A stretch of DNA of 32,000 nucleotides from the NCBI RefSeq assembly GCF_000009705.1, contig NC_003272.1, forward strand, positions 4,860,001-4,892,000, read 5' to 3'. This DNA is from Nostoc sp. PCC 7120 = FACHB-418 (GTDB lineage Bacteria > Cyanobacteriota > Cyanobacteriia > Cyanobacteriales > Nostocaceae). Below the pieces are notes generated by a model, which was not told where the DNA came from, ran no database searches, and saw only the letters and a program-made list of their open reading frames with translations. Positions 3,101-32,000 of this stretch are shown in pieces (position 1 is the first letter of the stretch; every line of letters starts with the position of its first letter). The position numbers were made by a program, and so were the translations under genes.

Positions 3101-3714
3101 ACTTCATCAGTAAATCTTTCATCTGTGGAGAGTTCCAGAAGGGCTTGATAAGATTCAACCCAACCCTCACGGCTATCTCCAACGTAGATAGTAGCGCTAT
3201 TGCCTTCTATATGGGTTTGTGTATATTCACGACGTAAATGTTTAGGGGTAGTACCAATTTCCCCTTTAACAATGATATTCAGGTGATTACGAATGGGTGG
3301 CAGTTGATTAATATATTCCGGTTCGATGACGGCTCCCGTGCCACACCCCATCATCGCTAGGTTCATCATCAACCCGAAGGCTTTCCAGTCTTGGAGGTTG
3401 GTGGATGTGCAGTTATAGGCACCGGAGAAGTTTTTGGATTTATTGATCCAATCTGTGCCGCCCACCCACAACCAGCGTCCACTGGGTAAGGCTGTTAAAT
3501 TACGCTGTGTCTTGTCTAAAATTGCTACTTCTTCCGGACTCAGCTTACCTAATTCGATTAAATCTTTGAGGGTGCGATCGCACACCTCATCCCACGTTTC
3601 CCTTAACCCCGCTTCTGTACGGCGGCTATAGGTTCTAAAAAATACCGGATTGGCAGCTGGGGCAGATTCAGGAAACCTTGCACTCTGACGTTTTCTCTCA
3701 AGCTCACGAACCAT
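196..3714 (-). CDS. nrdJ: Class II (adenosylcobalamin-dependent) ribonucleoside-triphosphate reductase NrdJ, interrupted by one intein (1172-aa precursor, 765-aa extein)
   Basis: A single 1172-aa ORF. The extein parts carry RNR-type motifs (FFRTYSR, NPCGEI, TVQPSGT). The conserved segment VAGNIRR / SAGMRQF is split by the intein. The lengths match my recollection of the published Anabaena PCC 7120 NrdJ (1172 aa with a 407-aa intein). Confidence 0.93.
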   Translation of the reverse strand: MVRELERKRQSARFPESAPAANPVFFRTYSRRTEAGLRETWDEVCDRTLKDLIELGKLSPEEVAILDKTQRNLTALPSGRWLWVGGTDWINKSKNFSGAYNCTSTNLQDWKAFGLMMNLAMMGCGTGAVIEPEYINQLPPIRNHLNIIVKGEIGTTPKHLRREYTQTHIEGNSATIYVGDSREGWVESYQALLELSTDERFTDEVQVFVDVSDVRQSGETLNGFGGVANPVKLPGLYQRCAAILNKALGRKLNSVECCLLIDEGAVTIVAGNIRRCLPEDALVHTAKGLVPIRDVQVGDLVQTPLGFRRVVDKFDQGFQDVYEIETNATYPRATLNHRQAVLEDAKGGIVWKHIASLEAGDRLLHNKQVLPGTVTHLPADFTESRPSHSRTAKSFVVPELTAEVAWLIGFTHGDGYVALGRNKYDKPYGRVEWSMNSLDAEVTSRIQAKIDAALALFGLSAVHSITKGENTAKSICSSIRLAEYFHRHIKQPNIPLTVPSFILQGSVDIRAAYLAGLMDSDGAVNNRPPHLITSVYRSFIRQVSVVLSSLGIAGRLTTTYPQNSNWQVKYNLTIPALKERYNALISPHSAKGELRQGLKMYGFTVPGAVMRETYTYSEMREMGFQGSRTVDANYERYVAEADISLDIPVTVKGLGSYDHVQTYDIEVDEAHCFYCDGYLTHNSAGMRQFISDDQLGAAAKDNLWQQDENGRWRIDPERDSLRMANHTRVFHRKPTLEECVDAVRKQYYSGEGAIQWAGEAVARANIDLLPTQALKVEFLKAYEQGTAKDWLQKRHPHFDEKELKHRLARYALNPCGEIIGSNFHCNLSEIHLNQIDPFNYKEQEEAFTAGALSVATLLNHKFPEPRYQYSRELDPIVGVSFTGLFDFFVHAFGAEWLQWWEAGRPATPQGLAFKREEEKYLSSWREIVQRVVWDYCDRHNIKRPNRCTTVQPSGTKSLLTGASPGWHPPKAQRFIRRITFRKNDPVALACIDYGYNVIPSQSDKDEQGNLLNDPLDPRVSEWLVEIPVAVSWADIPGADTIDISKFNAIAQMDFYMQVQKFYVTHNTSATIEVREHEVETLGTQIWQAIQNDEGYISAALLARFDDHQTFPRLPFEPISKEQYEQMVKEVVQRRKTDDFYAVLSRYDFGDLMEVGPAGCDSDKCMMPEQSPN
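1669..2889 (-). mobile_element. Class 1 intein (407 aa) with a LAGLIDADG homing-endonuclease domain, inserted in nrdJ
   Basis: Starts at Cys276 (codon 2889-2887, CLPEDALV, block A). TLNH forms the block B TxxH. Two LAGLIDADG motifs are present (LIGFTHGDGYV and YLAGLMDSDGAV). The C-terminal block is DIEVDEAHCFYCDGYLTHN, ending at Asn682 (codon 1671-1669) and followed by +1 Ser683. Confidence 0.92.
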
Positions 3715-4108
3715 AAATCAAGTCTTGTTGCTTGTTAACAGATTACGACTATACGCCAAGTAGATTGAGGATAAAAGATTGAAAAATTTGCCACTTTACG
3801 CTAGGCCAGTGCTGTACAAATTGCCACATAAGTTTATGGTGTATAATAACTTTTCCTACCCAGAAAGTTTATATACTGAGTTGCAATTATTAACAGTGAC
3901 AAAGCGTGAAAATGATAGGCGATAGGGCAAATTTAACTTAATCTCTACTTCCATTCAAATAACAAATTTTAGTAATAAGCAATATATATCAATCTAAAAT
4001 AAGGTGAAATCACACACCTTACGATAAATCTGACATTAGCTGATCGCCATCAAACTTAATTAACCAAGCAAAAGAGTAATATAAATTACGAATTATAAAT
4101 TATTTAGT

Positions 4109-6471: not shown

Positions 6472-7515
6472 TTAATTGCTGGGATTCCAGATAAACTCTC
6501 CTATTTTATTGATATAGCCAGCCTTGCCATCAACATATACCAACGCCAGTTCATTTGTAAAACTCAAAGCCAAGTCAAATTTTGGCTGGATTACCATCTT
6601 ACCTTGAGTATTAATATAGCCATACTTGTTATCAATTTTGACGGCTGCTAATCCTTCAGCAAATTTTGTGACTCTATCAAATTCAGCAGCAATTACTATC
6701 TCACCACGAGGATTAATATAACCCCATTTTTCACCGATTTTTACTACTGCTAAGTTAAAAGTAAATTCCCAGGCATCATCAAATTGTGGTGGGATAACAA
6801 GCTTACCAGATGTATTAATATACCCATATTTATTACCAATTTTAACTGCTGCTAAACCTTGGTAAAAAGCTATGGTTTCGTCAAAACTTGGTTGTACAAC
6901 TATATGTCCTTGAGAGTTTATATAGCCCCATTTATTGTTGATTTGAACGGCTGCTAATCCTTCGTTAAAGTGTAAAGCTTTATCATACTGTGGCTGAATG
7001 ACTAATTTACCACTAAAGTCTATATAACCCCACTTTTCATCAACCTTAACTGCTGCTAAACCATTTCTAAAAGCTAAAGCTTCCTCAAATTGAGGTTGGA
7101 TAACTAATTTTCCGTTAGGGTTAATGTAGCCATATTTATAATCAATCAATACTAAAGCGAGTCTGTTGGAGAAAGCAAAGGCTAATCGAAATTGTGGAGG
7201 TATAATCTGTTTACCTGTAGTATCAATATATCCATATTTATCACCAATTTTAACCTGCGATCGCTCGTCGATAAAGCCCCACGCTAAATCAAATTGTGGC
7301 TCGATAACTATTTTGCCATTTTTGTCGATAAAACCATATTTGCCATTTTTAAGAATACGAAACAATGGACTTGTCACACGCTGAGATGCTAATGATTGAT
7401 TAGGGTTTTGCTTTTGTCTAACAATGATACTTGATGCTTGTAATTTTGGATGATAAATACCAATTAGAGCATTAATGATAGTCAAACAGAGAAAAAGACA
7501 AATATATTTCTGCAT
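6472..7515 (-). CDS. WG-repeat (KWG) containing secreted protein with 9 tandem ~34-aa repeats
   Basis: The N-terminal segment is hydrophobic. Nine repeats follow, of the form K(Y/W)GYI(D/N)xxGKxVIxPQFDxAxxFxxGLAxVK. Confidence 0.85.
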   Translation of the reverse strand: MQKYICLFLCLTIINALIGIYHPKLQASSIIVRQKQNPNQSLASQRVTSPLFRILKNGKYGFIDKNGKIVIEPQFDLAWGFIDERSQVKIGDKYGYIDTTGKQIIPPQFRLAFAFSNRLALVLIDYKYGYINPNGKLVIQPQFEEALAFRNGLAAVKVDEKWGYIDFSGKLVIQPQYDKALHFNEGLAAVQINNKWGYINSQGHIVVQPSFDETIAFYQGLAAVKIGNKYGYINTSGKLVIPPQFDDAWEFTFNLAVVKIGEKWGYINPRGEIVIAAEFDRVTKFAEGLAAVKIDNKYGYINTQGKMVIQPKFDLALSFTNELALVYVDGKAGYINKIGEFIWNPSN

Positions 7516-14845: not shown

Positions 14846-15391
14846 CTAGGTATCAGCCGATTTTTCGTGTTTTGATAGCTGACCATGAGAGCAACGGTCA
14901 AACCACTCTTGGTATTTCTTTTGGTGTTCTTCGTCTTCAACAACAATAGAGACTCGTACCTGTTGACAACCATGTTTGCGTTCTAGAGCGATCGCATTTA
15001 ATAATAAACTAGCAATTTTAGGAGAGCTAAAGCTACCACTTACCGTTAAACCACCATTCCAACCTCGTAGTTCGTGGCTAGCATTTTGAGCTAATTCAAT
15101 GCCAGTAATCTCACCTTGGCTTAAATCGATCTCTGCAAGTTGCTTGTGTTCTGGGCCTATTTGTTCCACAATCAGCTTTTCGCGCCGTACAGGAACTTGC
15201 ACCATCTGAGTTTCGATTACCTTACGGACAACGACCTCACCAATTTTCTGCCTACTTATATCAACTAAGAGCCTTTCTTCCAGTAAGCGAATGTTCTTCT
15301 CTTCCTCAATTATATGGTGATTGTTTTGCTCACTTGAATTATCAGTTATTGGTTGGTGAATTGGTATTTCTGCGGCTAAATTATCGGACAT
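14846..15391 (-). CDS. DUF2382 (YsnF/AvaK C-terminal) domain protein, 181 aa
   Basis: IRLLEERLLVDISRQKIGEVVVRKVIETQMVQVPVRREKLIVEQ matches the DUF2382 repeat pattern also seen in the two downstream paralogs. Confidence 0.75.
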   Translation of the reverse strand: MSDNLAAEIPIHQPITDNSSEQNNHHIIEEEKNIRLLEERLLVDISRQKIGEVVVRKVIETQMVQVPVRREKLIVEQIGPEHKQLAEIDLSQGEITGIELAQNASHELRGWNGGLTVSGSFSSPKIASLLLNAIALERKHGCQQVRVSIVVEDEEHQKKYQEWFDRCSHGQLSKHEKSADT

Positions 15392-15429
15392 ATAATCTAC
15401 TTTTAAAACTTATCTCTAGAGTTATTACA

Positions 15430-15479
15430 AGTACAGGTAAAGCTAATATTGATAATAAAAAGCCTTACTTACCTGTACT
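15430..15479 (-). terminator. Long stem-loop between the AvaK-like gene and the DUF2382 gene
   Basis: AGTACAGGTAA (15430-15440) pairs with TTACCTGTACT (15469-15479). The pairing can be extended imperfectly inward (GTAAAGCT with AGCCTTAC). No obvious U-tract follows. Confidence 0.4.
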
Positions 15480-15529
15480 GCATTAGGACGAGTTATTAGA
15501 TAATGACTAATAACTCTATTGATGAACAA

Positions 15530-16465
15530 TTAGCGTTCTTCAATGGGAAGACCAGGAGCATTCACGTCTAATTCTTCACGACGGATTTTTTCTTGAGCTT
15601 CCACAGTTTCATGCTCGACAACTTTTTGAACTCTAACTTCTTCCCGTACGAAAGCTTCTTTGCGAATGTCAGGAGTTTCTTCATGAAGTTCTACACGGGC
15701 AACTTCGCCTTCACGGAAGTCAGCAGTACCAGGAGCAACAGACCTACCAGCATCATCTGGCGTAACGCGTTCAATCACCACGCGTTCTCTTTCCACGGGT
15801 ACTGCAACCCGTGCAGTTTCCGTTTCTACGTGCTTGCCAACAGCTACTTCACCAGTTTTTTGACGGCGTTTATTGGCAATTAGCCGTTCTTCATAAAGTC
15901 TCAGCGTTTGGTGATCTTGCTCATTAATTCCGAACAAAGCAGGCTCTTGCTCGTAATTGTAAGTGTCACGGGTATAAGTGGGTGTTGCTGGCGTAGTTGT
16001 TTTATAGCTTGTGTCTAGAGGTGTAGAAGCTTCTAGAGGTGTTCTGCTTTCCAAAGGTGTGGATGTTTCCAAAGAAGTTGATCTGTCTGCGCTTGTATTA
16101 GCGTAACTGGGATTACGATATACTCCGCGTACTCGTTCTTCATAATCGTAATCAACAGCTAAACGGTCGTTGAATTCGGGTAAATTTTCAGCTTGGTCTC
16201 TGGTCATCCCAATTGCATAAACACGACCAGCGCCATAATCAATACGAGAACGACCCACTGGTAGTAATACTTTTTTACCAAAAATCCAAAAACCTAAGTC
16301 AACGATTAAATAGCGGAAGTGGCCTTCATCATCCACTAAAACATCGTTGACAGTACCAATTTTTTCATCGCTTCTTTCTGTATAGACACCAAGTCCTTTA
16401 ATGTCGTTACCTTGAAAGGAGTCTTGATAATTAGGATCAAAATCAGCTAACTTGTAAAGTGCCAT
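15530..16465 (-). CDS. PRC-barrel + DUF2382 protein (AvaK-like, akinete/stress-associated family), paralog 1, 311 aa
   Basis: MALYKLADFDPNY...GTVNDVLVDDEGHFRYLIVD forms the PRC barrel. LRLYEERLIANKRRQKTGEVAVGKHVETETARVAVPVERERVVIER and a second half-repeat form DUF2382. The ATG at 16465 is preceded by GAGGTGGA. The longer ORF from 16504 is unlikely. Confidence 0.85.
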   Translation of the reverse strand: MALYKLADFDPNYQDSFQGNDIKGLGVYTERSDEKIGTVNDVLVDDEGHFRYLIVDLGFWIFGKKVLLPVGRSRIDYGAGRVYAIGMTRDQAENLPEFNDRLAVDYDYEERVRGVYRNPSYANTSADRSTSLETSTPLESRTPLEASTPLDTSYKTTTPATPTYTRDTYNYEQEPALFGINEQDHQTLRLYEERLIANKRRQKTGEVAVGKHVETETARVAVPVERERVVIERVTPDDAGRSVAPGTADFREGEVARVELHEETPDIRKEAFVREEVRVQKVVEHETVEAQEKIRREELDVNAPGLPIEER

Positions 16466-16744
16466 GTGATTCCACCTCAAATATATAAAATGCCTCTTAA
16501 TCACTAACCTAAGTATTTATGATTTAAATTGCCTCTTTCTAGCGAATGAAGTCAGTTTTTAAATAAAAAATCAAAAGTAATAGATATTTTAAATTAATAA
16601 AATATTTTTTAGTTGATAGAGTGCAAATAAAGAATCATTCGCTATTTATGTCATTACTTTTCAGGAGATTAAAACTATAGCAATCAGATTTTATTGTTAA
16701 AAAACTATCTCTGCAAGATTATTCCTGCCTGCTTTATAGTGACT

Positions 16745-16803
16745 ATGGTGGGCATTGCCCACCCTACGTATACTCCAGAAAGCAAGCAAGTATCATCTAT
16801 CTT
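16745..16803. repeat. Partial copy (right half) of the MITE-like repeat
   Basis: GTGGGCATTGCCCACCCTAC at 16748-16767, followed by GTATACTCCAGAAAGCAAGCAAGTAT. This resembles the right halves of the copies at 8288-8342 and 19840-19882. Confidence 0.6.
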
Positions 16804-16815
16804 TTAACTAATTTT

Positions 16816-17661
16816 TCAACCATTTTCATGTCTTTCCACATTAGTTTCATTGACGAGTAAATTACCAGCAGTATCAATATCTAACTCTTCCCGACGAATT
16901 ACATCTTGGGCTTCAACGGTATCGCTTTCTACTACTTTTCTTACCCGGACTTCTTCGCGTACAAAAGCTTCTTTGCGAATTTCTGGGGTTTCTTCGTACA
17001 ATTCGATGCGCGCCACTTCCCCTTGTTGAAACTTAACCTCTTTGGGATCTACTATCGTATCTGGCGATGTTGGTGCGGCTCTTTCAATTACTACACGTTC
17101 TCTTTGAATAGGCACAGCCACCCGTGCGTTTTCTGTTTCAATGTGTTTACCAACAGCTACTTCACCAGTTTTGACACGATGCTTGTTAGCAATTAATCTT
17201 TCTTCGTAGAGTCTGAAAGTTTGATGATATTGCTCATTCAAATTATATAAAGCTGGTTCTTGCTGATAGTTGTATGACTGACGGTCATAAGTTAAATTGC
17301 TAGTCTGTGTCCGAAAGACACCGCGTACTCTTTCTTCGTATTCTTCATCAACTGCAATATTGTCGTGATATTCAGGTAAATGTTCTACTTGTTCTTTGCT
17401 CAGTCCGTCAACATAAACGCGTCTTTCTGGATAATTGATCTGGGACAGCCCAATTGGTAGTAAAATTTTCTTGCTAATTGAATCATCAATATGAGTGTCA
17501 ATTACTAGATAACGAAAACGTCCTTCATTATCAACTAAGACATCAGCGATCGCTCCAACTCTCACGCCACTTTGGGTATAGAGTTCTAAAGCTTTAACAT
17601 CATCCCCACCAAAGGTTTCTCTGTAGTTAGGGTCAAATTCTTCAAGTTTATAAAGAGGCAT
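16816..17661 (-). CDS. PRC-barrel + DUF2382 protein (AvaK-like), paralog 2, 281 aa
   Basis: Collinear with paralog 1 (MPLYKLEEFDPNY..., FRLYEERLIANKHRVKTGEVAVGKHIETENARVAVPIQRERVVIER, EAFVREEVRVRKVVE). It lacks the S/T/P-rich linker of paralog 1. Confidence 0.85.
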   Translation of the reverse strand: MPLYKLEEFDPNYRETFGGDDVKALELYTQSGVRVGAIADVLVDNEGRFRYLVIDTHIDDSISKKILLPIGLSQINYPERRVYVDGLSKEQVEHLPEYHDNIAVDEEYEERVRGVFRTQTSNLTYDRQSYNYQQEPALYNLNEQYHQTFRLYEERLIANKHRVKTGEVAVGKHIETENARVAVPIQRERVVIERAAPTSPDTIVDPKEVKFQQGEVARIELYEETPEIRKEAFVREEVRVRKVVESDTVEAQDVIRREELDIDTAGNLLVNETNVERHENG

Positions 17662-23103: not shown

Positions 23104-23202
23104 CATCCAGACTTTAGTTGGGAGAAGGGAATGTTGAATGGTGATTCAGAATGTCTCCCTCATCTCCCTAATTACACTATCTTGGCAACCTAGCATCAAA
23201 CT

Positions 23203-23350
23203 CTCAGCGTAACTCCCTTCGGGTGACGCTCCTAACGTCGCTAACGCTGCGCTAACACCAGTCGCCTGCGGTTCGTGCAGCGTCTCGTAGCAGAGAGAAA
23301 CCCTCCCGCAGCGCTGGTTCACCGCGCTAACCTCAGCGCCCCCCTGCGTT
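23203..23350. repeat. GC-rich island of degenerate short repeats inside an otherwise AT-rich 640-bp intergenic region
   Basis: Repeated CGCTAAC, CTCAGCG and CCTGCG(G)TT units. It also contains GCAGCGTCTCGTAGCAGAGA, related in reverse complement to the core of the 4731-4808 element. Confidence 0.55.
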
Positions 23351-23743
23351 TAACAGTCCCCCATCAACTCACCACGAATTTACGCAAAGGGATACCAAGT
23401 AATTATAAATTTTCATAGTAAATTTATAATCTCTCTTCACCCCCACATCAATAGAGAGACGGTAAATGCTTACAAAATCAATACTTTGCTTCATCTACAC
23501 TTACTTACATTTGCAGATCACTTATGGTGTAAATTTATTTTTTTAGTGAAAACACCGAGTAATATCTTCCGATAAGTAGATGGTTGTGTCAATATTACTG
23601 AATCAATAGGTAACAAAAATCCCTGGCAAGCCTATATCCGAAAGCAGCACATCTGCAAAAAGTAAGATATGTGATGCCATAGTTTCCAGATAAGTTTTGG
23701 AAACACCAAATGACTCACTGCCTAACTATCCAAGAAGTTGCCA

Positions 23744-25552
23744 ATGACAAACGTCTCTACCCTGGTTGAACTGCTACGCGCTCGTGCTAATCATGAGCCG
23801 GACAAGCTCGCCTATATGTTTCTCATCGATGGGAAAACAGAAGGCCCAAAGTTAACATACGCAGAATTGGATCGTCTAGCCCGTGCAATTGGTGCATTAT
23901 TGCAGAAACATAATGCTAAAGGTGAACGTGTTTTGCTGCTGTACCCCCAGGGATTAGACGTGATGGCAGCATTTTTGGGTAGTCTTTATGGTGGAGTCAT
24001 TGCCATCCCTGCACCTCCTCCTGATGCTGGTAGATTGAAACGGGCTTTGCCTCGGTTACGGGCTATTGTTAAGGATGCCAACGCTAAATTTGTCTTCACC
24101 AACCAGCACCTTTTGGGTGTTCTGCAAGCAGCCAAGTTAGATTTTCCCGAATTTGAGGAAATGACTTGGTTTGCCAGCGAAGACATCGATTTAGAACTAG
24201 CAGACCAATGGCAAGACCCTGAAATTACTCCAAATACCCTGGCATATTTGCAGTACACATCAGGCTCGACTTCCACACCAAAGGGTGTGATGATTAGCCA
24301 CCACAACATCATGCACCACTGCGCTTATCTACAAAAAGCTTGTGGCTATGATACTGAGAGCGTTTCCATCACCTGGATGCCATATTTCCACGATTACGGG
24401 CTAGTAGAAGGGTTGACCGTACCCATTTACAACGGTCATCCTTGCTATGTTATGTCCCCTATGTCCTTTATTAAACAGCCTGTACGTTGGTTACAAGCAA
24501 TTTCTCGCTATCGCGGTACTCATAGTCAAGCTCCTAACTTTGCTTATGAACAGTGCATTCGCCGCGTCACCGATGCACAACTAGCTACCCTGGATCTCAG
24601 CAGTTGGGTAGCAGCCGGGAATGCCGCCGAACCAATTAACCCTAGAGTGTTAGAAGAGTTTTTTGAGAAGTTCGCCCCTAGTGGGTTCAAGTGGGAAACC
24701 TTTGCACCCGCTTATGGATTGGCAGAAAATACACTGTTGGTTTCTACCAGCCCCAGAAATACACCACCTGTCCTGTGTTTGGTAGAAAAAACCAAAATTG
24801 AGCAGAACAAAATTGTGGAAGCCACTACCTGGGACGATGGAGTCCGGGCTATCCCTGGATGCGGTCGCTTAGTTTGTGAGACGCAAGTGGCAATTGTCAA
24901 TCCAGATACTTTGACTCGTTGTGGGACGGATGAAGTAGGCGAGGTATGGGTAGCAGACCCTAGCGTGGCTGGTGGTTATTGGCAACGCCCCCAAGAAAGC
25001 GAAAGTACCTTCCGTGCCAAGATTGCCGGGAATAATCAAGTCTCTTTCCTCCGCACAGGTGACTTGGGCTTTATCAAGGGTGGTGAGTTGTTCATCACCG
25101 GACGGATCAAAGATTTGATTATTATCCGGGGGACTAACCATTATCCCCAAGACTTGGAATGGACTGTACAGGAAATTCACCCAGCCCTTCGCCCAGACTA
25201 TGGTGCAGCCTTCTCCATCGATGTGGATGGAGTGGAACAACTGGTAGTCGTCCAGGAAGTTAAACGCAAACCAGAAGAAGAGTTTAACTCAGATGAGGTA
25301 TTGACCAATATTCGGCAAGCGATCGCCGAAATTCATGAACTGCAAGCATACGCTGTGGTTCTTGTCAAGCCTGGTAATGTTCTCAAAACCTCCAGTGGCA
25401 AAATTCAACGACGTGCCTGCAAAGCCAGTTTCCTCGCCGGTGAGTTGGAAGTTTTAGCCGATTGGAGCGAAAACCCCAAATACACCGCCAGCTATCGGCG
25501 ACTACAAGGGGAAGTAAATTCTTTGCTGGAAAAGGTGCAAGTTACTCACTAA
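23744..25552 (+). CDS. Fatty acyl-AMP ligase (FAAL, FadD32-like adenylating enzyme)
   Basis: [85 protein letters not shown] and [11 protein letters not shown]. I prefer the ATG at 23744 to the TTG at 23738. Confidence 0.9.
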   Translation: [602 protein letters not shown]

Positions 25553-25562
25553 GGAGAAAATT

Positions 25563-27371
25563 ATGCAGCCACTCAAGCAATATTGGATCGCAGAAGCATT
25601 AGAGAAAGATTTGGGCGACCCTAGCAACCCAAATAATGTGATGTCGTTTAAGCAGGTAATTGACCTGGACGAACGAGAAGAGTTTCCCCATGAGATTATT
25701 AATTGGCTCTATAACTGGAAACTCCAGCACTATTACATCCCTACAGAATGCGGCGGTGAATTTACCTCCTTTGACGAGTTTATCGCCTTTGTGCGCGTCC
25801 TTTCCCGCCGTGACCAAACCGCAGCGATCGCCTTCACCACCATGTTCTGGTCATACCTGACATGGATGGCAGGCACGGACGAGCAGAAGCGCACCCTAGC
25901 CAGCTTCATGAAAGATGCCAACGGGGCTATGTGTCTGGCTTATTCAGAGAAAGCCCACGGTAGCGATTTACTCGCCAGTGATGTGAGAGCGACAAAAGCC
26001 CCTGGTGGCTACATCCTCAACGGCGAAAAATGGCCGATTAACCGCGCCACCATCTCCGGGGTTACCTTCGTCCTAGCCAAAACCGACGAAGAAGGCGGAG
26101 CGCGTAGCCTCTCCCTATTCATGATAGAAAAGAGCAAAATCGACCCCGCCAACTATAGCCACCTACCAAAAATCTTTACCCACGGTGTGCGCGGTTCAGA
26201 TATGAGTGGGATCAAATTTGAGAACTGCTTCATCCCCGAATCTATGCGGTTGGGGGCAGAAGGGGCAGGACTAGAACTAGCACTCAAAGGCTTCCAAATC
26301 ACCCGCGCTTTATGTGCCGCCTTTTCCCAAGGGGCTGCTGATACTGCCCTGCGGACTACCCTCAAGTTTGCCTTGGGGCGGCAGTTATACGGCAAGACCG
26401 TTTATGATATGCCCCAACCCAAACGCACTTTAACAGATGCGTTTCTGGATATCCTGATTTGCGACTGCGCCACCATTGGCGTTACCCGTGGGTTTAACAC
26501 CATGCCAGAGCAAATCAGCGTCTGGTCAGCCGTGGTGAAATACTTCGTCACCACCAACCTAGAAACAGTCGTGCAGAATGTCTCCGTCGTTTTAGGTTCA
26601 CGCTTTTATATGCGTGAAGAACACGACTATGGCATTTTCCAAAAAGTACTGCGGGATAACGCCATCATCAGTATGTTTGATGGCAGTACTGTAGTTAACC
26701 TCCATGCTTTGTTGCTGCAACTACGTCAACTCGCCAAGTCCCGCGCCAGAAATGCTGGACGCAACCAAGAAACCTTACAAGCACGTCTAGCAGCCACCTT
26801 TGACTTAACCCAAACCTTACCCGCTTTTGATGGTAAGAAGTTGGAACTAGTCAACCGGGGTGGTGATGACGTTTTGCAAGGATTAGGTTTAGCCCTGACA
26901 TCTTTAATTGATTTAAAGGCAGACTCCAGCCTCAATTCCGAAGTATTGCAGCAAATTATCCAACTAACCGAAATAGTACAGGAGGAATTAAACACTCTTG
27001 ATCATCAGATTACAGAGTCTACCTTCCAGTTTGGGCATGAGCAAGCACCAGAAGTCTTCGACATAGCCAAACAATACTGCGTCCTGCACGCGGCTGCTAG
27101 CTCTGTCTATATGTGGCTTCACAACCGCCATCATTTGGGAGACTTCTTTAGTCATGGCGAGTGGTTGGCACTCGGCCTCCGCAAACTACTGTTAACCTTC
27201 CGCCCAGCTAAAGCCTTACCAGGGCGCATTGATGACGCAGCAGTTGCCCAAGAGTTAGTCCGGTTGTACACCGACAATCGGATGTTTTCCATCGTTCCCT
27301 TCCAATTAGCAAACCCTCAACTACAAGAGACTAAAACTGATGCAACTCAAAGACTCCAACTCCAAGCCTAG
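25563..27371 (+). CDS. Acyl-CoA dehydrogenase-family flavoprotein (602 aa, long form), likely acting on ACP-tethered acyl chains
   Basis: It has a strong AAGGAG Shine-Dalgarno 10 nt after the FAAL stop. ACAD-like regions include CLAYSEKAHGSDL, GEKWPINRAT, MSGIKFENCFIP and ALKGFQITRALCAA. About 180-200 extra residues follow at the C-terminus. Confidence 0.8.
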   Translation: MQPLKQYWIAEALEKDLGDPSNPNNVMSFKQVIDLDEREEFPHEIINWLYNWKLQHYYIPTECGGEFTSFDEFIAFVRVLSRRDQTAAIAFTTMFWSYLTWMAGTDEQKRTLASFMKDANGAMCLAYSEKAHGSDLLASDVRATKAPGGYILNGEKWPINRATISGVTFVLAKTDEEGGARSLSLFMIEKSKIDPANYSHLPKIFTHGVRGSDMSGIKFENCFIPESMRLGAEGAGLELALKGFQITRALCAAFSQGAADTALRTTLKFALGRQLYGKTVYDMPQPKRTLTDAFLDILICDCATIGVTRGFNTMPEQISVWSAVVKYFVTTNLETVVQNVSVVLGSRFYMREEHDYGIFQKVLRDNAIISMFDGSTVVNLHALLLQLRQLAKSRARNAGRNQETLQARLAATFDLTQTLPAFDGKKLELVNRGGDDVLQGLGLALTSLIDLKADSSLNSEVLQQIIQLTEIVQEELNTLDHQITESTFQFGHEQAPEVFDIAKQYCVLHAAASSVYMWLHNRHHLGDFFSHGEWLALGLRKLLLTFRPAKALPGRIDDAAVAQELVRLYTDNRMFSIVPFQLANPQLQETKTDATQRLQLQA

Positions 27372-27720
27372 TACTAATAACGCCGTTGACACTATCCAAG
27401 GGTGGTTAGTTAACCAGATTGCCACACAATTAAACATCAATGCTCAAACCATCAAAGTTACTGAACCCTTGACTCGCTACGGTCTAGATTCCATTGATTC
27501 AGTCACTATCGTCGGTGAATTGGAAGATTGGCTTGATGCAGAACTACCCCCTACCTTACTCTGGGATTACCCCACCATTGAAAAAGCGTCTCAATATTTG
27601 GTGAACGAAGTAGGTGTAACACCTGCGGAAACAGCAACGGCTGAACCCGCTACCAAACCTCAAGAAGCCCCCAAAGAAAAAGCCTGGGGTGGTCTGTGGA
27701 ACAAAATTAGTGGCAGTTAA
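27340..27720 (+). CDS. Acyl carrier protein (PKS/NRPS-type PP-binding domain) with a ~35-aa C-terminal tail
   Basis: RYGLDS51IDSVTIVGELEDWL (Ser codon 27490-27492) and LLWDYPTIEKASQYL. The start overlaps the dehydrogenase 3' end by 32 nt. Confidence 0.85.
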   Translation: MQLKDSNSKPSTNNAVDTIQGWLVNQIATQLNINAQTIKVTEPLTRYGLDSIDSVTIVGELEDWLDAELPPTLLWDYPTIEKASQYLVNEVGVTPAETATAEPATKPQEAPKEKAWGGLWNKISGS

Positions 27721-27780
27721 TTAATTCGTAATACCCTACGGGTTCGCGGTAGTGTTGCGTAGCAAAGGCTAACGCCTACG

Positions 27781-27819
27781 TAATTCGTAATTCCCATCTT
27801 AACGACGAATTACGAATTA
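27781..27819 (+). promoter_or_regulatory. Perfect 13-bp stem-loop built from STRR heptamers, in the ACP-MBOAT intergenic gap
   Basis: TAATTCGTAATTC (27781-27793) pairs with GAATTACGAATTA (27807-27819). The loop is 13 nt. It lies 32 nt before the MBOAT start. Confidence 0.6.
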
Positions 27820-27850
27820 TTAATTATCAATTATTCATGGGGGATGTTAA

Positions 27851-29314
27851 TTGAATTTCTCAGAATTTTCTTTCTGGTGGGTGCTGCTACTTTTTAGCAT
27901 CCCTTTCTTTACAGTCCGGTATGTTGCCAAATCATTGAACCTGTGGAGAGGAATCTTTGATGCAGTTGGTTTGGCAGCAATTTCTTCCCTATTATTTGTC
28001 AACGCTTCTCGTTCTAGTTTTGCCATCTTCGTCTGTGAAATCATCTTCAACTACGTCATGGTGTGGTTGATGTTGCGTCAACAAGGATGGAAAGCTAAAG
28101 CGATCGCTACTACTGTCATCATTATAGATATTGCTATTCTTGCCTACTTCAAATACCTAAACTTTTTTGTTGAAGATGTTTTAGGGTTGTTAGTCCCAGG
28201 ATTAGCCGACAATTGGCAATCCAAGAGTATTCCCGGTATGGGTTCCATTCCCCCAGGATTGTCTTTTTACACCTTCCAGATGGTGGCGTTTGTTGTTGAC
28301 TCCTACACCAGCCGCAAAAAACGTGCTATTGGCGCATTAGATTATCTCAATTTCGTCTCCTTCTTCCCCCAAGTGGTGGCAGGCCCCATCGAACGCCGGG
28401 GTGATTTGTTTCCCCAAATTGAGTCATTCCGCTTTAAATTTACTTATGACAACTTTGAAACAGGCTTTCGCTGGTTGTCGTTAGGACTATTCATGAAGTT
28501 TGTCCTAGCAGATAATATTTCACCTTATATCAAATTAGACCAAGCCCAAAACCCTTGGCTAGTATGGTTCTTTGCCTTCTTATTTACATTACAAATTTAC
28601 TTTGACTTCGGCGGCTATAGTTTTATTGCTCTGGGTTTAGCAAAATTTTTAGGCATCAACTTAACTATTAACTTTTTGGCTCCTTACACATCCCAAAGCA
28701 TTAACGAGTTTTGGCGCAGATGGCACGTCACACTTAGTACTTGGTTTCGGGATTACGTCTTCTTACCTCTCATGGGTAAGAACAAACAGTGGGCCCCATT
28801 TTATCTATTTCTCACCTTCACCCTTTCGGGATTCTGGCACGGAGCCGCGTGGAACTTTGTCTTCTGGGGCGCATACCACGGGCTATTGTTATTAGTTATA
28901 CGTTACGCCGGACGACCTTTTTACAAACTTGTTGGACAGCAAAGGTTCCTCATGCCACAGTTTATTTCCTGGGCATTAACCTTCGGTTCGATCATCTTGG
29001 GATGTCTGTTTTTTATGGAAACCAAGACACCAAGACTATTAGAGAAGTTGCAAACAATCCTGAACCCTTGGACATATTCTTTAGCCAATCTTGGCGAAGC
29101 CATGAGTTTCTTCAGTGGTAACGAAGCGATCGCACTAGGATTTACTCTAGCATTAGCCATCACCTTGTTACTCATGGAACACATTGGAGTCTGGCAACAA
29201 CGGGCGTGTGAATATGACTTGTTACTCTCTCCCTGGGTTTCGCGGGTGCTATTAGCGTTAACCGTCTTACTAGCTGCGAATACACCATCGCCCTTTATCT
29301 ACTTTGAGTTCTAA
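27851..29314 (+). CDS. MBOAT-family membrane-bound O-acyltransferase (AlgI/DltB-like)
   Basis: LSFYTFQMVAFVVD, FFPQVVAGPIERR, FDFGGYS, EFWRRWHVTLSTWFRDYVFLPL and GFWH330GAAWNFVFWGAYHG (His codon 28838-28840). The start appears to be TTG at 27851 (MNFSEFSFWW..., typical of an AlgI N-terminus). Confidence 0.9.
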   Translation: MNFSEFSFWWVLLLFSIPFFTVRYVAKSLNLWRGIFDAVGLAAISSLLFVNASRSSFAIFVCEIIFNYVMVWLMLRQQGWKAKAIATTVIIIDIAILAYFKYLNFFVEDVLGLLVPGLADNWQSKSIPGMGSIPPGLSFYTFQMVAFVVDSYTSRKKRAIGALDYLNFVSFFPQVVAGPIERRGDLFPQIESFRFKFTYDNFETGFRWLSLGLFMKFVLADNISPYIKLDQAQNPWLVWFFAFLFTLQIYFDFGGYSFIALGLAKFLGINLTINFLAPYTSQSINEFWRRWHVTLSTWFRDYVFLPLMGKNKQWAPFYLFLTFTLSGFWHGAAWNFVFWGAYHGLLLLVIRYAGRPFYKLVGQQRFLMPQFISWALTFGSIILGCLFFMETKTPRLLEKLQTILNPWTYSLANLGEAMSFFSGNEAIALGFTLALAITLLLMEHIGVWQQRACEYDLLLSPWVSRVLLALTVLLAANTPSPFIYFEF

Positions 29315-29322
29315 GGAATTAT

Positions 29323-30264
29323 ATGGCTGCTCTGAAAAAATTTCTACAGCTTAATAGTTGGTTGGCGATCGCCGTTTTAGCCTGGGGTGTTGGTTACTTA
29401 TACAATGCTCGTTATGGGGGCGAACTCAGTTGGCTACGCATCATGTATGAGCAGAAAAAAGCGATCGCAAGTGAAGTCCAAGCTCCCCAACGGATTTTGA
29501 TTGTCGGTGGTTCTGGGGCGCACTACACCGTAGACGCAGGATTGATGCAGCAACAATTAGGCATCCCGGCTCTCAACATGGCCACAGATGGCCCAGTCGG
29601 CTTAAATGTCATCCTGCCCAGTGTCGCCGATAGCATTAAAAAAGGTGATATTGTCGTACTAATACCGGAGTATCTCATCTTAAATGATAAAGATGGCTTT
29701 GGCGATCGCTCTGGTCAGTTTAGTGTAGCCATTGGTAAACCCGGACTTGGGGGTGTTCCTGCCAAACAACTAGCCCAAGATATCATGTTGCTTGGTGTTC
29801 CTACCTTGCGCGCAGTTACCAAGTCATCTGTAGAATTAGTAGAAAAAGGCCGCTTCACTGGTTATTACTCCGATCCCATCACTGCGAATGGAGACCCTAC
29901 AGTGATGAAACAGCGCCTTAAGTCAGCTTGGTGGCAACTAAAAATCCAAGAGCCAGTTTCTCCCCAGGCTTTACGACGTATTCGCCAGTTTAAAAAAGAA
30001 GTTGAAGCTAAAGGCGCAACTTTAGTTCTCGGACTTTCGTGGATTTACGCCAGTACTGATACTAAAACCATCGGTAATATCAGCAAAACTGCTGAGAAAC
30101 TAAGTGAAATTGCCCCTCTACTCTACGACAAACAAACCTTGAACGTAAAAACCGATTCGAGTCTGTTTGCCGACACCCACTATCACCTCAATCCTCCAGG
30201 TCGCCGCACCCGCACCACCGAGTTAGTAGAACAACTCAAGACCCTCAATATTATTCGTAACTAA
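29323..30264 (+). CDS. N-terminally membrane-anchored extracytoplasmic protein, putative SGNH/DltD-like partner of the MBOAT
   Basis: It starts 8 nt after the MBOAT stop, with an AAGGA Shine-Dalgarno. There is one TM segment (WLAIAVLAWGVGYLY). Candidate block I is ILIVGGS64GAHY and candidate block V is FAD284TH286YH288LNPPG. The fold assignment is an inference. Confidence 0.55.
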   Translation: MAALKKFLQLNSWLAIAVLAWGVGYLYNARYGGELSWLRIMYEQKKAIASEVQAPQRILIVGGSGAHYTVDAGLMQQQLGIPALNMATDGPVGLNVILPSVADSIKKGDIVVLIPEYLILNDKDGFGDRSGQFSVAIGKPGLGGVPAKQLAQDIMLLGVPTLRAVTKSSVELVEKGRFTGYYSDPITANGDPTVMKQRLKSAWWQLKIQEPVSPQALRRIRQFKKEVEAKGATLVLGLSWIYASTDTKTIGNISKTAEKLSEIAPLLYDKQTLNVKTDSSLFADTHYHLNPPGRRTRTTELVEQLKTLNIIRN

Positions 30265-30359: not shown

Positions 30360-32000
30360 ATGGTTGCAAATGAAGGAATATCCAAAAACATATTGACAAG
30401 GAAGCTAGATGATGTATTTGGGCTGGATTTGCGATCGCTAGCGGCTTTTCGCATCGGTATCTCATTAATTCTTTTGATCGATTTGGGCATTCGTTTCAGT
30501 GATTATATCGCCCACTACACCGATGCAGGCGTTATGCCCCGCGCCTTACTGGCAGACATCAGCAAACCTTGGCACTGGTCACTCCATGCCATGAGTGGCG
30601 AACCCATCTTTCAAGCGGTATTGTTTGGCATTGCGGCTGTGATGGCGCTCCTGATGCTAGTGGGATATCGCACGCGGATTGCCACGATTGCATCTTGGGT
30701 TTTGCTCATCTCCCTCCACAACCGGAATCCGGCATTAATTTTTGCCGCCGATGATGTGTTGCGTGCGCTGATGTTTTGGGCAATGTTTCTGCCCCTGGGT
30801 GCTAGTTACTCCATTGAAAGCGCTCTGAATACTAATACGCGCAAGTTACCGGAAAGGGTGGTTTCTGGGGCTACTTTTGCCTTAATTTGCCAGCAGTGTT
30901 TTATTTATATATTCTCTGCTGCCTTCAAAACTAAAAGCCCAGTCTGGGTTGATGGTAGTGCTGTTTACTATTCTCTCAGTTTTGATCAATACACCACTCC
31001 TCTCGGTCATTTTCTGCTCAACTTCCCGCCACTATTAACCCTGTTTACCTACGTTACCTTGGTGCTGGAATGGGTAGGGCCGTTATTGCTGTTTATTCCC
31101 TTCCGTAACAGCTTCTTTCGGATGTGTGCTGTTACTACCTTCGTCTTGCTGCACGCAGGATTTGGCTTAACTTTGAACTTGGGCATCTTCCCATTTTTAA
31201 GTATCTTCAGTTGGTTAGCCTTCCTCCCCAGTTCCTTTTGGGATGGGCTACACAAGCGCCTGCAAACACCAGAACATAAAGGCTTGACAATTTACTTCGA
31301 TGCCGATTGTGGTTTCTGTAAAAAAGCAGTACATCTGTTGCGGACACTCTTGATTTTGCCAGGAACGCCGTTACTCATGGCGCAAGAATACCCAGATATC
31401 CATACTGATATGCAAACCTACAATTCCTGGGTAGTGGAAGACTGGCAGGGAAACCGACATTTCAAATTTGAGGGAATAGCCTACATCGTTAGTCTCTCAC
31501 CTGTATTCCGCTTTCTGGTTCCCTTGCTCACATGGAAACCAGTCATGGCAGTAGGTACAAAATTTTATGAGGTAATTGCTTCTAACCGCAAAATAGCAGG
31601 TAATTTCACCAAACCCTTTAAATTCAAACCAATACAGATACGCTCATCACGGATTCTGAATATTTTGGCGCTGTTATTGCTGTTGTATACTTTTGTCTGG
31701 AATATCAGTAGTTATTCCCCCGATGCCTTTAAACGCAAGGTTTGGCAAAGTACAGAATTCATTGGCCGGGCTACACGCCTAGACCAATCTTGGAGTATCT
31801 TTGCGCCCGCACCACCGAGAGATGACGGCTGGCACGTAATTCCGGCTCGTTTGCAAGATGGAACTGAGGTTGATATTTTCCGGGGAGGAAGTCCAGTAAC
31901 TTGGGATAAACCAGACTTGGGTTTACGAAGTGCCATCTACCAAAATATGCAGTGGCGTACTTATTTTATTAATTTGAATCGGGCAATCGGTAAAAAGCTC
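30360..32000 (+). CDS. HTTM (vitamin K-dependent gamma-carboxylase-like) membrane domain fused to a DCC/DUF393 thiol-disulfide oxidoreductase domain. Partial: it runs off the window end.
   Basis: This ORF is not in the supplied track. My hand translation from the ATG at 30360 gives 547 codons with no stop. It begins MVANEGISKNILTRKLDDVFGLDLRSLAAFRIGISLILLIDL...SLHNRNPALIFAADDVLRALMFWAMFLPLGASYS (HTTM-like). Later comes LTIYFDADCGFCKKAVHLL (CxxC at 31308-31319, DCC-like), then a region QSWSIFAPAPPRDDGW. Confidence 0.75.
   Translation, partial: MVANEGISKNILTRKLDDVFGLDLRSLAAFRIGISLILLIDLGIRFSDYIAHYTDAGVMPRALLADISKPWHWSLHAMSGEPIFQAVLFGIAAVMALLMLVGYRTRIATIASWVLLISLHNRNPALIFAADDVLRALMFWAMFLPLGASYSIESALNTNTRKLPERVVSGATFALICQQCFIYIFSAAFKTKSPVWVDGSAVYYSLSFDQYTTPLGHFLLNFPPLLTLFTYVTLVLEWVGPLLLFIPFRNSFFRMCAVTTFVLLHAGFGLTLNLGIFPFLSIFSWLAFLPSSFWDGLHKRLQTPEHKGLTIYFDADCGFCKKAVHLLRTLLILPGTPLLMAQEYPDIHTDMQTYNSWVVEDWQGNRHFKFEGIAYIVSLSPVFRFLVPLLTWKPVMAVGTKFYEVIASNRKIAGNFTKPFKFKPIQIRSSRILNILALLLLLYTFVWNISSYSPDAFKRKVWQSTEFIGRATRLDQSWSIFAPAPPRDDGWHVIPARLQDGTEVDIFRGGSPVTWDKPDLGLRSAIYQNMQWRTYFINLNRAIGKKL

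Follow-up and report, generated by a model that had tools for sequence, protein, structure and literature searches.

To our knowledge, the bacterial relays that couple a membrane-bound O-acyltransferase (MBOAT) to a partner protein of the SGNH type move only acetyl groups (onto peptidoglycan, alginate, cellulose and secondary wall polymers) or D-alanine (onto teichoic acids). In such pairs the acyl group is passed on through the tyrosine of a C-terminal FXYXXF motif, and relays to the outside of the cell that run from a His through the shuttle Tyr to the Ser of an SGNH protein are known for PatA and for DltB/DltX (PMC12148441). In the Dlt pathway this motif is borne by a microprotein, DltX, and in PatA, AlgI and similar proteins it is fused to the MBOAT itself on two extra helices; the fused-motif MBOATs work without a carrier protein because their donor is acyl-CoA (PMC12148441). 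Here we analysed 32,000 nucleotides of the chromosome of Nostoc sp. PCC 7120 (contig NC_003272.1, positions 4,860,001 to 4,892,000; this whole stretch is called the window below) with regard to the operon alr4057-alr4062, which encodes a fatty acyl-AMP ligase (FAAL), a long protein of the acyl-CoA dehydrogenase (ACAD) family, an acyl carrier protein (ACP), an MBOAT, an anchored SGNH-like protein (P5) and a sixth conserved protein (F4). We interpret it as an envelope-acylation operon, in which a carrier-protein donor module (the FAAL-ACAD-ACP trio) is joined to an MBOAT/SGNH transmembrane acyl relay with a polysaccharide as acceptor, and we put the probability of this reading at roughly 0.55.

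The proposed pathway would begin with the FAAL, which, as a member of its family, is expected to adenylate a long-chain fatty acid and load it onto the dedicated ACP. The long ACAD, whose gene shows translational coupling with that of the ACP, may then alter the ACP-bound chain; the simplest product would be a 2-enoyl thioester, although the putative base of the enzyme is Asp and not Glu. At the cytoplasmic face, the ACP thioester would donate its acyl group to the MBOAT, which would pass it via His330 to Tyr484 of its own FIYFEF motif at the outer face. There Ser64 of P5, with Asp284 and His288, would pick up the acyl group and esterify an extracytoplasmic acceptor, for which a polysaccharide, either at the surface or still in transit, is the most probable candidate. 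That the donor is long-chain and carrier-bound is implied by the fact that FAAL, ACAD and ACP belong to the operon, and that the MBOAT accepts the ACP thioester is what we infer from the gene content. The operon would thus work like the Dlt pathway (DltA, DltC, DltB, DltX and DltD), since both would pass the acyl group from an adenylating enzyme to a carrier protein, an MBOAT, the Tyr of an FXYXXF motif, an anchored SGNH protein and finally a polymer.

The locus tags were assigned by position, because the MBOAT matches alr4060 (BAB75759) exactly; the ACAD, ACP, MBOAT and P5 all have exact database matches, including Nostoc (Anabaena) sp. PCC 7120 and records of close Nostocaceae. The alr4057-alr4061 genes are packed on the plus strand (Table 1), and reading of the sequence confirmed the spacing: a 10-nt gap with AAGGAG between the FAAL and ACAD genes, a 32-nt overlap of the ACAD and ACP genes (27340-27371), a hairpin-containing gap of 130 nt before the MBOAT gene and a gap of 8 nt before the P5 gene. 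A sequence-only reading of this DNA had described the same five genes with the same spacing, and every motif it quoted is found at the residue that it gave, including Ser51 of the ACP and His330 of the MBOAT. Its assignment of the gene content (FAAL, ACAD, ACP, MBOAT and an anchored SGNH-like protein) also holds, judging from domain and Protein Data Bank (PDB) matches and from AlphaFold models compared with Foldseek. It had closed the unit at position 30264, and in this respect it was too short, as the unit continues with a sixth gene from 30360.

Table 1. Features of the alr4057-alr4062 region (positions in the window).
Feature	Position	Strand	Basis or remark
Intergenic region before alr4057, presumed operon promoter/leader	23104..23737	+	634 nt, free of open reading frames
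Fatty acyl-AMP ligase alr4057 (604 aa)	23738..25552	+	First start TTG at 23738, ATG at 23744; Pfam AMP-binding 1e-62
AAGGAG ribosome-binding site in the FAAL/ACAD gap	25551..25556	+	Sequence reading
Long ACAD-family flavoprotein alr4058 (602 aa)	25563..27371	+	Pfam ACAD N, M and C domains, core residues 33-380
Dedicated acyl carrier protein asr4059 (126 aa)	27340..27720	+	PP-binding 2e-15; phosphopantetheine Ser51 (GLDS) at 27490-27492
Perfect 13-bp inverted repeat in the ACP-MBOAT gap	27781-27793/27807-27819	+	Made of TAATTCGTAAT copies
MBOAT alr4060 (487 aa)	27851..29314	+	Pfam MBOAT 1e-26
MBOAT catalytic His330 (GFWHGAAW)	28838-28840	+	Aligned with the DltB catalytic His
FIYFEF acyl-shuttle motif, MBOAT C terminus, Tyr484	29294-29311	+	Motif defined in PMC12148441
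Predicted membrane-anchored extracytoplasmic SGNH-like protein alr4061, P5 (313 aa)	29323..30264	+	AlphaFold (AF2) model and Foldseek
P5 invariant residues Ser64, Asp284 and His288	29512-29514, 30172-30174, 30184-30186	+	Family alignment
Sixth conserved gene alr4062, F4 (547 of about 602 aa, continuing beyond the window end)	30360..32000	+	tblastn with orthologues

The MBOAT has an AlphaFold (AF2) model with a pLDDT of 90.1, whose best PDB match is DltB (6BUG; E 2e-12, TM-scores 0.62/0.71), followed in second and third place by HHAT and PORCN. Against the NCBIfam DltB equivalog it scored 172 bits at a cut-off of 375. His330 was invariant in 36 of 36 sequences, and FIYF[EDS]F forms the C-terminal end of all 65 MBOAT orthologues that precede a P5 gene. 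Since alr4060 ends in a fused FXYXXF motif (FIYFEF), it is by sequence a fused-shuttle MBOAT of the PatA/AlgI type and not of the DltB type, yet it lies in an operon with a carrier protein. The Dlt likeness of the MBOAT proposed in the sequence-only reading holds with regard to the fold, which is closest to DltB, and has to be corrected with regard to the type. In the cyanobacterial clade, smaller residues stand in place of several bulky ones close to the MBOAT core (W315A, W385C, Y389M and F/Y215M), and a GRPF insertion is present at residues 354-357; these changes would fit a bulkier donor, but they are suggestive only.

The comparison with Dlt thus shows both likenesses and differences. In both systems a small carrier is encoded together with the MBOAT, and DltB is the closest solved MBOAT structure. 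On the other hand, a FAAL stands here in place of the D-alanine ligase DltA, an ACAD is inserted in the donor module, the ACP (126 residues) is of the polyketide synthase (PKS) type, and a 487-residue MBOAT with a fused shuttle motif contrasts with a DltB of about 400-420 residues and a separate DltX. A DltX would be dispensable here because the MBOAT bears the shuttle motif on its own extra C-terminal helices. Moreover, P5 gives no match to the DltD family by sequence, and the operon is found in a Gram-negative phototroph that lacks teichoic acids. A true Dlt system was accordingly rejected on the specificity of DltA, the DltB/DltX format and the DltD family membership by sequence. With PatA/PatB, AlgI/AlgJ/AlgF/AlgX and WssH-type systems, the operon shares the fused FXYXXF motif, the catalytic His and an adjacent anchored SGNH-like partner with Ser, Asp and His (the topology of P5 being predicted), and the nearest relatives of alr4060 likewise lie in polysaccharide clusters, one of them with AlgF. 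Those systems are free of a carrier and use acetyl-CoA (PMC12148441), whereas FAAL, ACAD and ACP are part of the gene content here. The eukaryotic HHAT, PORCN and GOAT resemble the proposed system in the MBOAT fold and in a long-chain acyl donor, but they use acyl-CoA and acylate proteins directly in the lumen of the endoplasmic reticulum, with neither Tyr shuttle nor SGNH partner.

P5 gave zero matches by sequence in Pfam, NCBIfam and a phmmer search of the PDB, and structure prediction alone resolved its fold. Its AlphaFold model (pLDDT 88.5) consists of an N-terminal helix of residues 2-31 followed by an alpha/beta domain. Foldseek matched this model in the PDB to SGNH hydrolases, among them rhamnogalacturonan acetylesterase, YxiM, TesA and the C-domain of OatA (best E 9e-6). 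The invariant Ser64 lies within GGSGAH, and Asp284 and His288 lie within DTHYH. DltD was absent from the top 50 Foldseek matches, and no DltD-family sequence match was obtained in Pfam or NCBIfam. P5 probably faces the periplasm, as suggested by Lys5 and Lys6 in front of the helix and by analogy with DltD and PatB. The family has 376 members, and among the best 120 listed, all named members are cyanobacterial.

With regard to the donor trio, residues 7-576 of alr4057 align with gaps of merely 1-3 residues to 7R7E (5e-164), the FAAL domain of the olefin synthase of Picosynechococcus PCC 7002, which is its best solved match. Other full-length solved matches are the Legionella FAAL 3KXW (1e-125), FadD32 (1e-98), FadD23 and FadD28, and NCBIfam FAAL models match at 1e-133 to 1e-110 (PRK05850 at 8e-133, FadD32 at 2e-124). 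Thus alr4057 has the full-length similarity spanning the FAAL-specific insertion region, and a cognate ACP is encoded two genes downstream; FAALs load ACPs and reject CoA (PMC11837247). In NCBIfam, asr4059 matches best the N-terminal ACP of Pks13, whose partner FAAL is FadD32; it resembles PKS-type ACPs and not DltC. All three ACAD domains are present in alr4058, but no NCBIfam equivalog reaches its cut-off, and the C-terminal extension of about 220 residues found no sequence match in the PDB. Asp373 (26679-26681) stands at the position of the usual catalytic Glu, the PDB alignment placing 'MFDGST' opposite 'IYEGTS'; it is invariant in 61 of 61 ACAD orthologues and is also kept in the more distant relatives from soil described below.

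Similar donor modules are found in two other settings. In the lipid-tail module of mycobactin, MbtM (FAAL), MbtL (ACP), MbtN (acyl-ACP dehydrogenase) and MbtK (acyltransferase) act together, and there, too, an ACP receives its chain from a FAAL, a member of the ACAD family desaturates this chain, and a dedicated acyltransferase takes the place of a synthase. MbtK is, however, a soluble cytoplasmic GNAT that acts on a lysine amine, in contrast to the transmembrane MBOAT relay proposed here, and alr4058 falls outside the MbtN equivalog family (NCBIfam E 0.008) and is about 220 residues longer. The FAAL-ACP starter cassettes (FadD32 with the N-terminal ACP of Pks13, JamABC, and the loading domain of the olefin synthase) are similar in that the FAAL is nearest to the olefin synthase domain and the ACP is nearest to that of Pks13. 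They differ in the receiver, as a ketosynthase (KS) or condensation (C) domain was not found within 10 kb in the cyanobacterial loci and occurs only in Methylocaldum relatives. A literature search, including the locus tags alr4057-alr4062, found no paper on such a system, and the sole mention was in a microarray table. The earlier statement that no characterised system has this composition is consistent with this result, but the logic of a FAAL, ACAD and ACP combined with an acyltransferase does have a characterised precedent in mycobactin.

To see how far the operon is conserved, a scan of one genome per species with the P5 profile gave 126 relatives, of which 80 were kept (with cyanobacterial titles or without taxon name, except for one contig binned as Chloroflexaceae); one further locus made 81. 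Clustering of the open reading frames found P5 in 79 of these loci, the MBOAT in 70, the ACAD and the ACP in 63 each, F4 in 61 and the FAAL in 60. All five genes occur in identical order in 59 of the 81 loci, or in 56 of the 69 loci whose upstream DNA is long enough to show them, and the cluster is spread over Nostocales, Pleurocapsales, Coleofasciculaceae, Leptolyngbya/Phormidesmis and others, so the synteny for which the sequence-only reading had asked extends across orders. The ACP gene is immediately upstream of the MBOAT gene in 63 loci, and the trio and the MBOAT are separated by 0-400 nt in about 60 cyanobacterial species. No PKS or nonribosomal peptide synthetase (NRPS), and no KS, C or adenylation (A) domain, was found within 10 kb in about 60 cyanobacterial loci, in line with the earlier claim. 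The conserved unit is at least six genes in PCC 7120 and seven to nine genes elsewhere. In 22 loci the cluster is followed by a second MBOAT, which ends in FLYFQF, with its own 405-residue partner, F7 (e.g., locus L001, 14116-16859); for F7 we found no Pfam or PDB match and no detectable relation to P5 or to the partner protein of the soil lineage described below. Moreover, genes for GT-C (PMT_2/ArnT-like) or GT2/GtrA (GtrB-like) glycosyltransferases lie beside the cluster in 18 cyanobacterial loci, and an Sfp-type phosphopantetheinyl transferase adjoins it in 17.

An independent sample of 80 metagenome loci, anchored on the ACAD and divided into cyanobacterial and distant tiers, gave a similar picture. 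The ACP gene directly follows the ACAD gene in all 62 loci with room to show it (44/44 in the cyanobacterial tier and 18/18 in the distant tier), and an MBOAT lies downstream in 23 of 34 cyanobacterial loci, the exceptions being mostly Microcystis. Clusters that are split or shortened are informative as well. In Hydrococcus rivularis, FAAL-ACAD-ACP-MBOAT is on one scaffold, and P5, F4 and a second MBOAT are on another together with F6, a flavoprotein gene inserted between P5 and F4 in many loci; the gene order in Rippkaea and Crocosphaera is ACAD-ACP-MBOAT-F6. Because split clusters leave the MBOAT with the trio and not with P5, F6 and F4, the donor trio appears to be tied to the MBOAT.

Outside the cyanobacteria, an exhaustive search with the MBOAT over 1.84 billion representatives gave 26,844 matches, in which full-length relatives at 35-45% identity form a distinct shell. 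The few named members found with a shell profile are all Verrucomicrobiota, and one shell cluster has a member from Kiritimatiellia. Five gene contexts of this shell, which we refer to as those of the Planctomycetota-Verrucomicrobiota-Chlamydiota (PVC) group, were read. In 5/5 the MBOAT ends in FIYF[ASN]F and is followed by an unannotated P5 homologue of 300-340 residues; hhalign supported the homology of two of these proteins (98.8% and 98.3%) and hmmsearch that of all five (7e-30 to 2e-15), and Ser64, Asp284 and His288 are kept. Polysaccharide genes lie beside four of the five pairs: three have Wzy, Wzx, glycosyltransferase, WecG, NeuB, sulfotransferase or exosortase genes, and genes for a GT4 glycosyltransferase and AlgF precede the fourth. 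No polysaccharide genes were found in the fifth context (L088), and FAAL, ACAD and ACP are absent from all five. These contexts place the MBOAT/P5 pair in a subfamily of polysaccharide O-acyltransferases, to which the trio, F4 and F6 are additions.

A second combination of the trio with an MBOAT was found in seven metagenome loci of a soil lineage (L144, L146, L148, L149, L151, L156 and L164; e.g., L151, 2410-8883), which belongs to the distant tier, where the ACADs are 48-53% identical. There, FAAL-ACAD-ACP is divergent to three genes, which encode an anchored protein of 363-366 residues with GNS and D-x-x-H motifs, a microprotein and an MBOAT. The microprotein is DltX-like, a single helix of 38 residues ending in (F/V)LYAQF, and the 424-residue MBOAT has no fused shuttle motif, which fits the DltB/DltX format. 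For the anchored partner, neither Pfam nor the PDB gave a match, and no relation to P5 was detected. The seven loci are close relatives and therefore count as one evolutionary instance. Since this lineage combines a DltX/DltB/DltD architecture with FAAL-ACAD-ACP, the coupling of this donor module with an MBOAT relay seems to have arisen twice, in two relay formats. The ACP-to-MBOAT interpretation of the sequence-only reading is thus supported, and the link is strengthened both by Hydrococcus, in which the MBOAT stays with the trio, and by the soil lineage, in which the trio accompanies a DltX/DltB/DltD-like set; the hand-over itself remains a prediction from gene content and motifs. On the other hand, two Methylocaldum-like loci (L158 and L166, 2877-13261) hold a homologous trio between an MMPL transporter and a single NRPS module with C, A, peptidyl carrier protein (PCP) and thioesterase (TE) domains, which looks like a lipo-amino-acid pathway.

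Several facts weigh against the ACP-fed relay. The TM-scores of the P5 matches are moderate (0.37-0.42 on the query), and the D-x-x-x-H spacing of its block V is atypical for SGNH enzymes. The dehydrogenase activity of alr4058 is only putative because Asp replaces the catalytic Glu. The window annotation shows no polysaccharide genes in the flanks of the operon in PCC 7120, and we know of no cyanobacterial polymer that has been shown to bear such an acyl chain. The parts of the system also occur separately: Microcystis keeps ACAD-ACP alone in a rearranged region (L100, L102-L105, L112, L115 and L116), Okeania keeps P5 alone (L073-L076, L079 and L080), and three loci have MBOAT-P5 with no trio within 8-10 kb. 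Since the Methylocaldum trio feeds an NRPS, the trio is a portable donor module and not intrinsically committed to an MBOAT. Finally, the closest relatives of the MBOAT/P5 pair, which lack a carrier protein, presumably use acyl-CoA; the cyanobacterial MBOAT could do likewise, with the trio serving something else.

This last point can be extended to a different explanation of the operon, in which the MBOAT and P5 are an ordinary polysaccharide O-acyltransferase pair using acetyl-CoA or a short acyl-CoA, and the trio makes a lipid for another enzyme of the same pathway (e.g., the HTTM-DCC protein discussed below, or a lipid anchor or primer), so that the genes are neighbours via a shared product and not via docking of the ACP to the MBOAT. 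It would account for the nearest relatives, carrier-free and located in standard polysaccharide clusters, for the separable modules, and for the fact that F4 and F6, like the trio, are cyanobacteria-specific additions; it also agrees with the use of acyl-CoA by fused-motif MBOATs (PMC12148441). However, it would not predict that split clusters keep the MBOAT with the trio instead of with P5, F6 and F4, or that the soil lineage couples the trio to a relay of Dlt architecture without F4 and F6, and acetylation could be covered by the second MBOAT with its partner (FLYFQF, 22 loci). For these reasons we regard it as unlikely. The trio could also be a free-standing starter cassette for a PKS or NRPS encoded elsewhere, unrelated to the MBOAT pair, as cassettes of FAAL and ACP usually prime assembly lines (PMC11837247) and as the Methylocaldum trio, preceded by the MMPL transporter, is followed by its C-A-PCP-TE module. 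We consider this very improbable, because about 60 cyanobacterial species hold the trio beside the MBOAT with no PKS or NRPS within 10 kb, and secondary metabolism varies widely among the lineages from which many of these genomes come.

The acceptor is a separate question. The sequence-only reading had listed envelope or heterocyst polysaccharide, a glycolipid, and a secreted protein or peptide as candidates. Among these, polysaccharide is now favoured by the PVC contexts and by the glycosyltransferase genes beside the cluster in 18 cyanobacterial loci. Since the cluster also occurs in unicellular and non-heterocystous cyanobacteria, an acceptor confined to heterocysts is unlikely, and a heterocyst-specific role was rejected, with Stanieria, Hydrococcus, Coleofasciculus, Leptolyngbya and Crocosphaera as carriers. 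Expression of alr4057 was increased 2.5-fold in a sigJ over-expressor that triples the released exopolysaccharide (PMC2779892), a response that gives weak circumstantial support to a polysaccharide. If the relay works as proposed, it may still act on an envelope lipid (lipid A/lipopolysaccharide core or a glycolipid), on peptidoglycan, or on a secreted protein or peptide as with HHAT, PORCN and GOAT. The operon flanks in PCC 7120, without polysaccharide genes, would fit such a target, as would the similarity of the MBOAT fold to the protein lipidators HHAT and PORCN after DltB, and the neighbouring GT-C/ArnT-like and GtrB-like genes also fit lipid-linked or lipid A type targets. We nevertheless think that such an acceptor is improbable, because the related MBOAT/P5 pairs lie among Wzy, Wzx and glycosyltransferase genes, one of them with AlgF, and no conserved gene for a candidate substrate peptide was found beside the cluster.

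The sixth gene, alr4062, was found with a full-length orthologue by tblastn (96% identity over residues 1-547). F4 contains a DCC1-like thiol-disulfide oxidoreductase domain with a CxxC motif, C317GFC (Pfam 30.5 bits, above the cut-off of 27.8). Its multi-pass membrane N-domain matches NCBIfam SdpB, of the HTTM superfamily, weakly (28 bits, E 1e-6, far below the cut-off), and the F4 family profile has no match in the PDB. A relation to HTTM/VKGC proteins is therefore indicated by one weak NCBIfam match beside an empty PDB profile search. Among the 61 loci with F4, 55 also have all five other genes. F6, a Pyr_redox_2 flavoprotein similar to NDH-2/SQR, separates P5 from F4 in 58 loci and is absent from the PCC 7120 group. 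F4 probably adds a redox step, and F4 and F6 could form a quinone/thiol redox pair. The HTTM superfamily is that of the vitamin-K carboxylase, and cyanobacteria make phylloquinone. A bolder combination is conceivable, in which an MBOAT relay that is fed a long, desaturated chain by an ACP, in cyanobacteria and independently in the soil lineage, lipidates extracellular polysaccharide or another envelope polymer, while F4 and F6 act as a quinone- and thiol-dependent pair, similar to the vitamin K cycle, and further modify either the acceptor or its acyl group on the extracytoplasmic side. The MBOAT would then be the first ACP-dependent long-chain MBOAT in bacteria; taken as a whole, we regard this as a long shot.

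In the intergenic region upstream of the operon (Table 1), neither sigma-70 promoters nor terminators were matched convincingly. An Rfam search gave zero family matches anywhere in the window, this region included, and a regulatory RNA is thus unsupported. The hairpin in the ACP-MBOAT gap has a folding energy of -34 kcal/mol and is mildly unusual (z = -2.2). It was rejected as a canonical terminator because no T-run follows it. Three exact copies of TAATTCGTAAT make up this hairpin. The element is a dispersed short repeat with exact copies at positions 4085, 14756, 27722, 27781 and 27809; these five and one more with a single mismatch compare with 0.9 matches expected in the window.

The rest of the window encodes housekeeping functions, namely an intein-bearing class II ribonucleotide reductase, HrcA, a transketolase-family enzyme, methylthioadenosine phosphorylase and a YgfZ-like protein. 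The ribonucleotide reductase frame (196-3714, minus strand; 1172 residues) has a B12-dependent-type insertion domain and, at residues 497-573, LAGLIDADG and homing-endonuclease domains, a segment that is presumably an intein. Three adjacent DUF2382 paralogues lie at 14846-17661 on the minus strand, the two larger ones also with a PRC-barrel domain. The window also encodes a WG-repeat protein (6472-7515, minus strand; PF14903, eight repeats). Another WG-repeat gene, with seven repeats, is found in L104 (5552-6739), directly upstream of the Microcystis ACAD-ACP pair; this co-occurrence is probably a coincidence. A group II intron reverse transcriptase is also encoded beside ACAD-ACP in L104, and the ACAD encoded in L102 corresponds to records of Microcystis aeruginosa.

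Finally, if the reading of alr4057-alr4062 as an ACP-fed envelope-acylation operon is true, its MBOAT would catalyse a reaction for which this class of enzymes has so far had no described example. It would give a function to a cluster of six to nine genes in many filamentous and colonial cyanobacteria, including the tractable model PCC 7120. The fused-shuttle form of cyanobacteria and the DltX-type form of the soil lineage would be a natural pair for studies of how MBOATs recognize a carrier protein or CoA. A hydrophobic modification of the sheath or exopolysaccharide would bear on desiccation tolerance, cohesion of biofilms and mats, buoyancy and surface adhesion. More generally, bacteria would then lipidate extracytoplasmic polymers by the chemistry that eukaryotes use for Hedgehog, Wnt and ghrelin.

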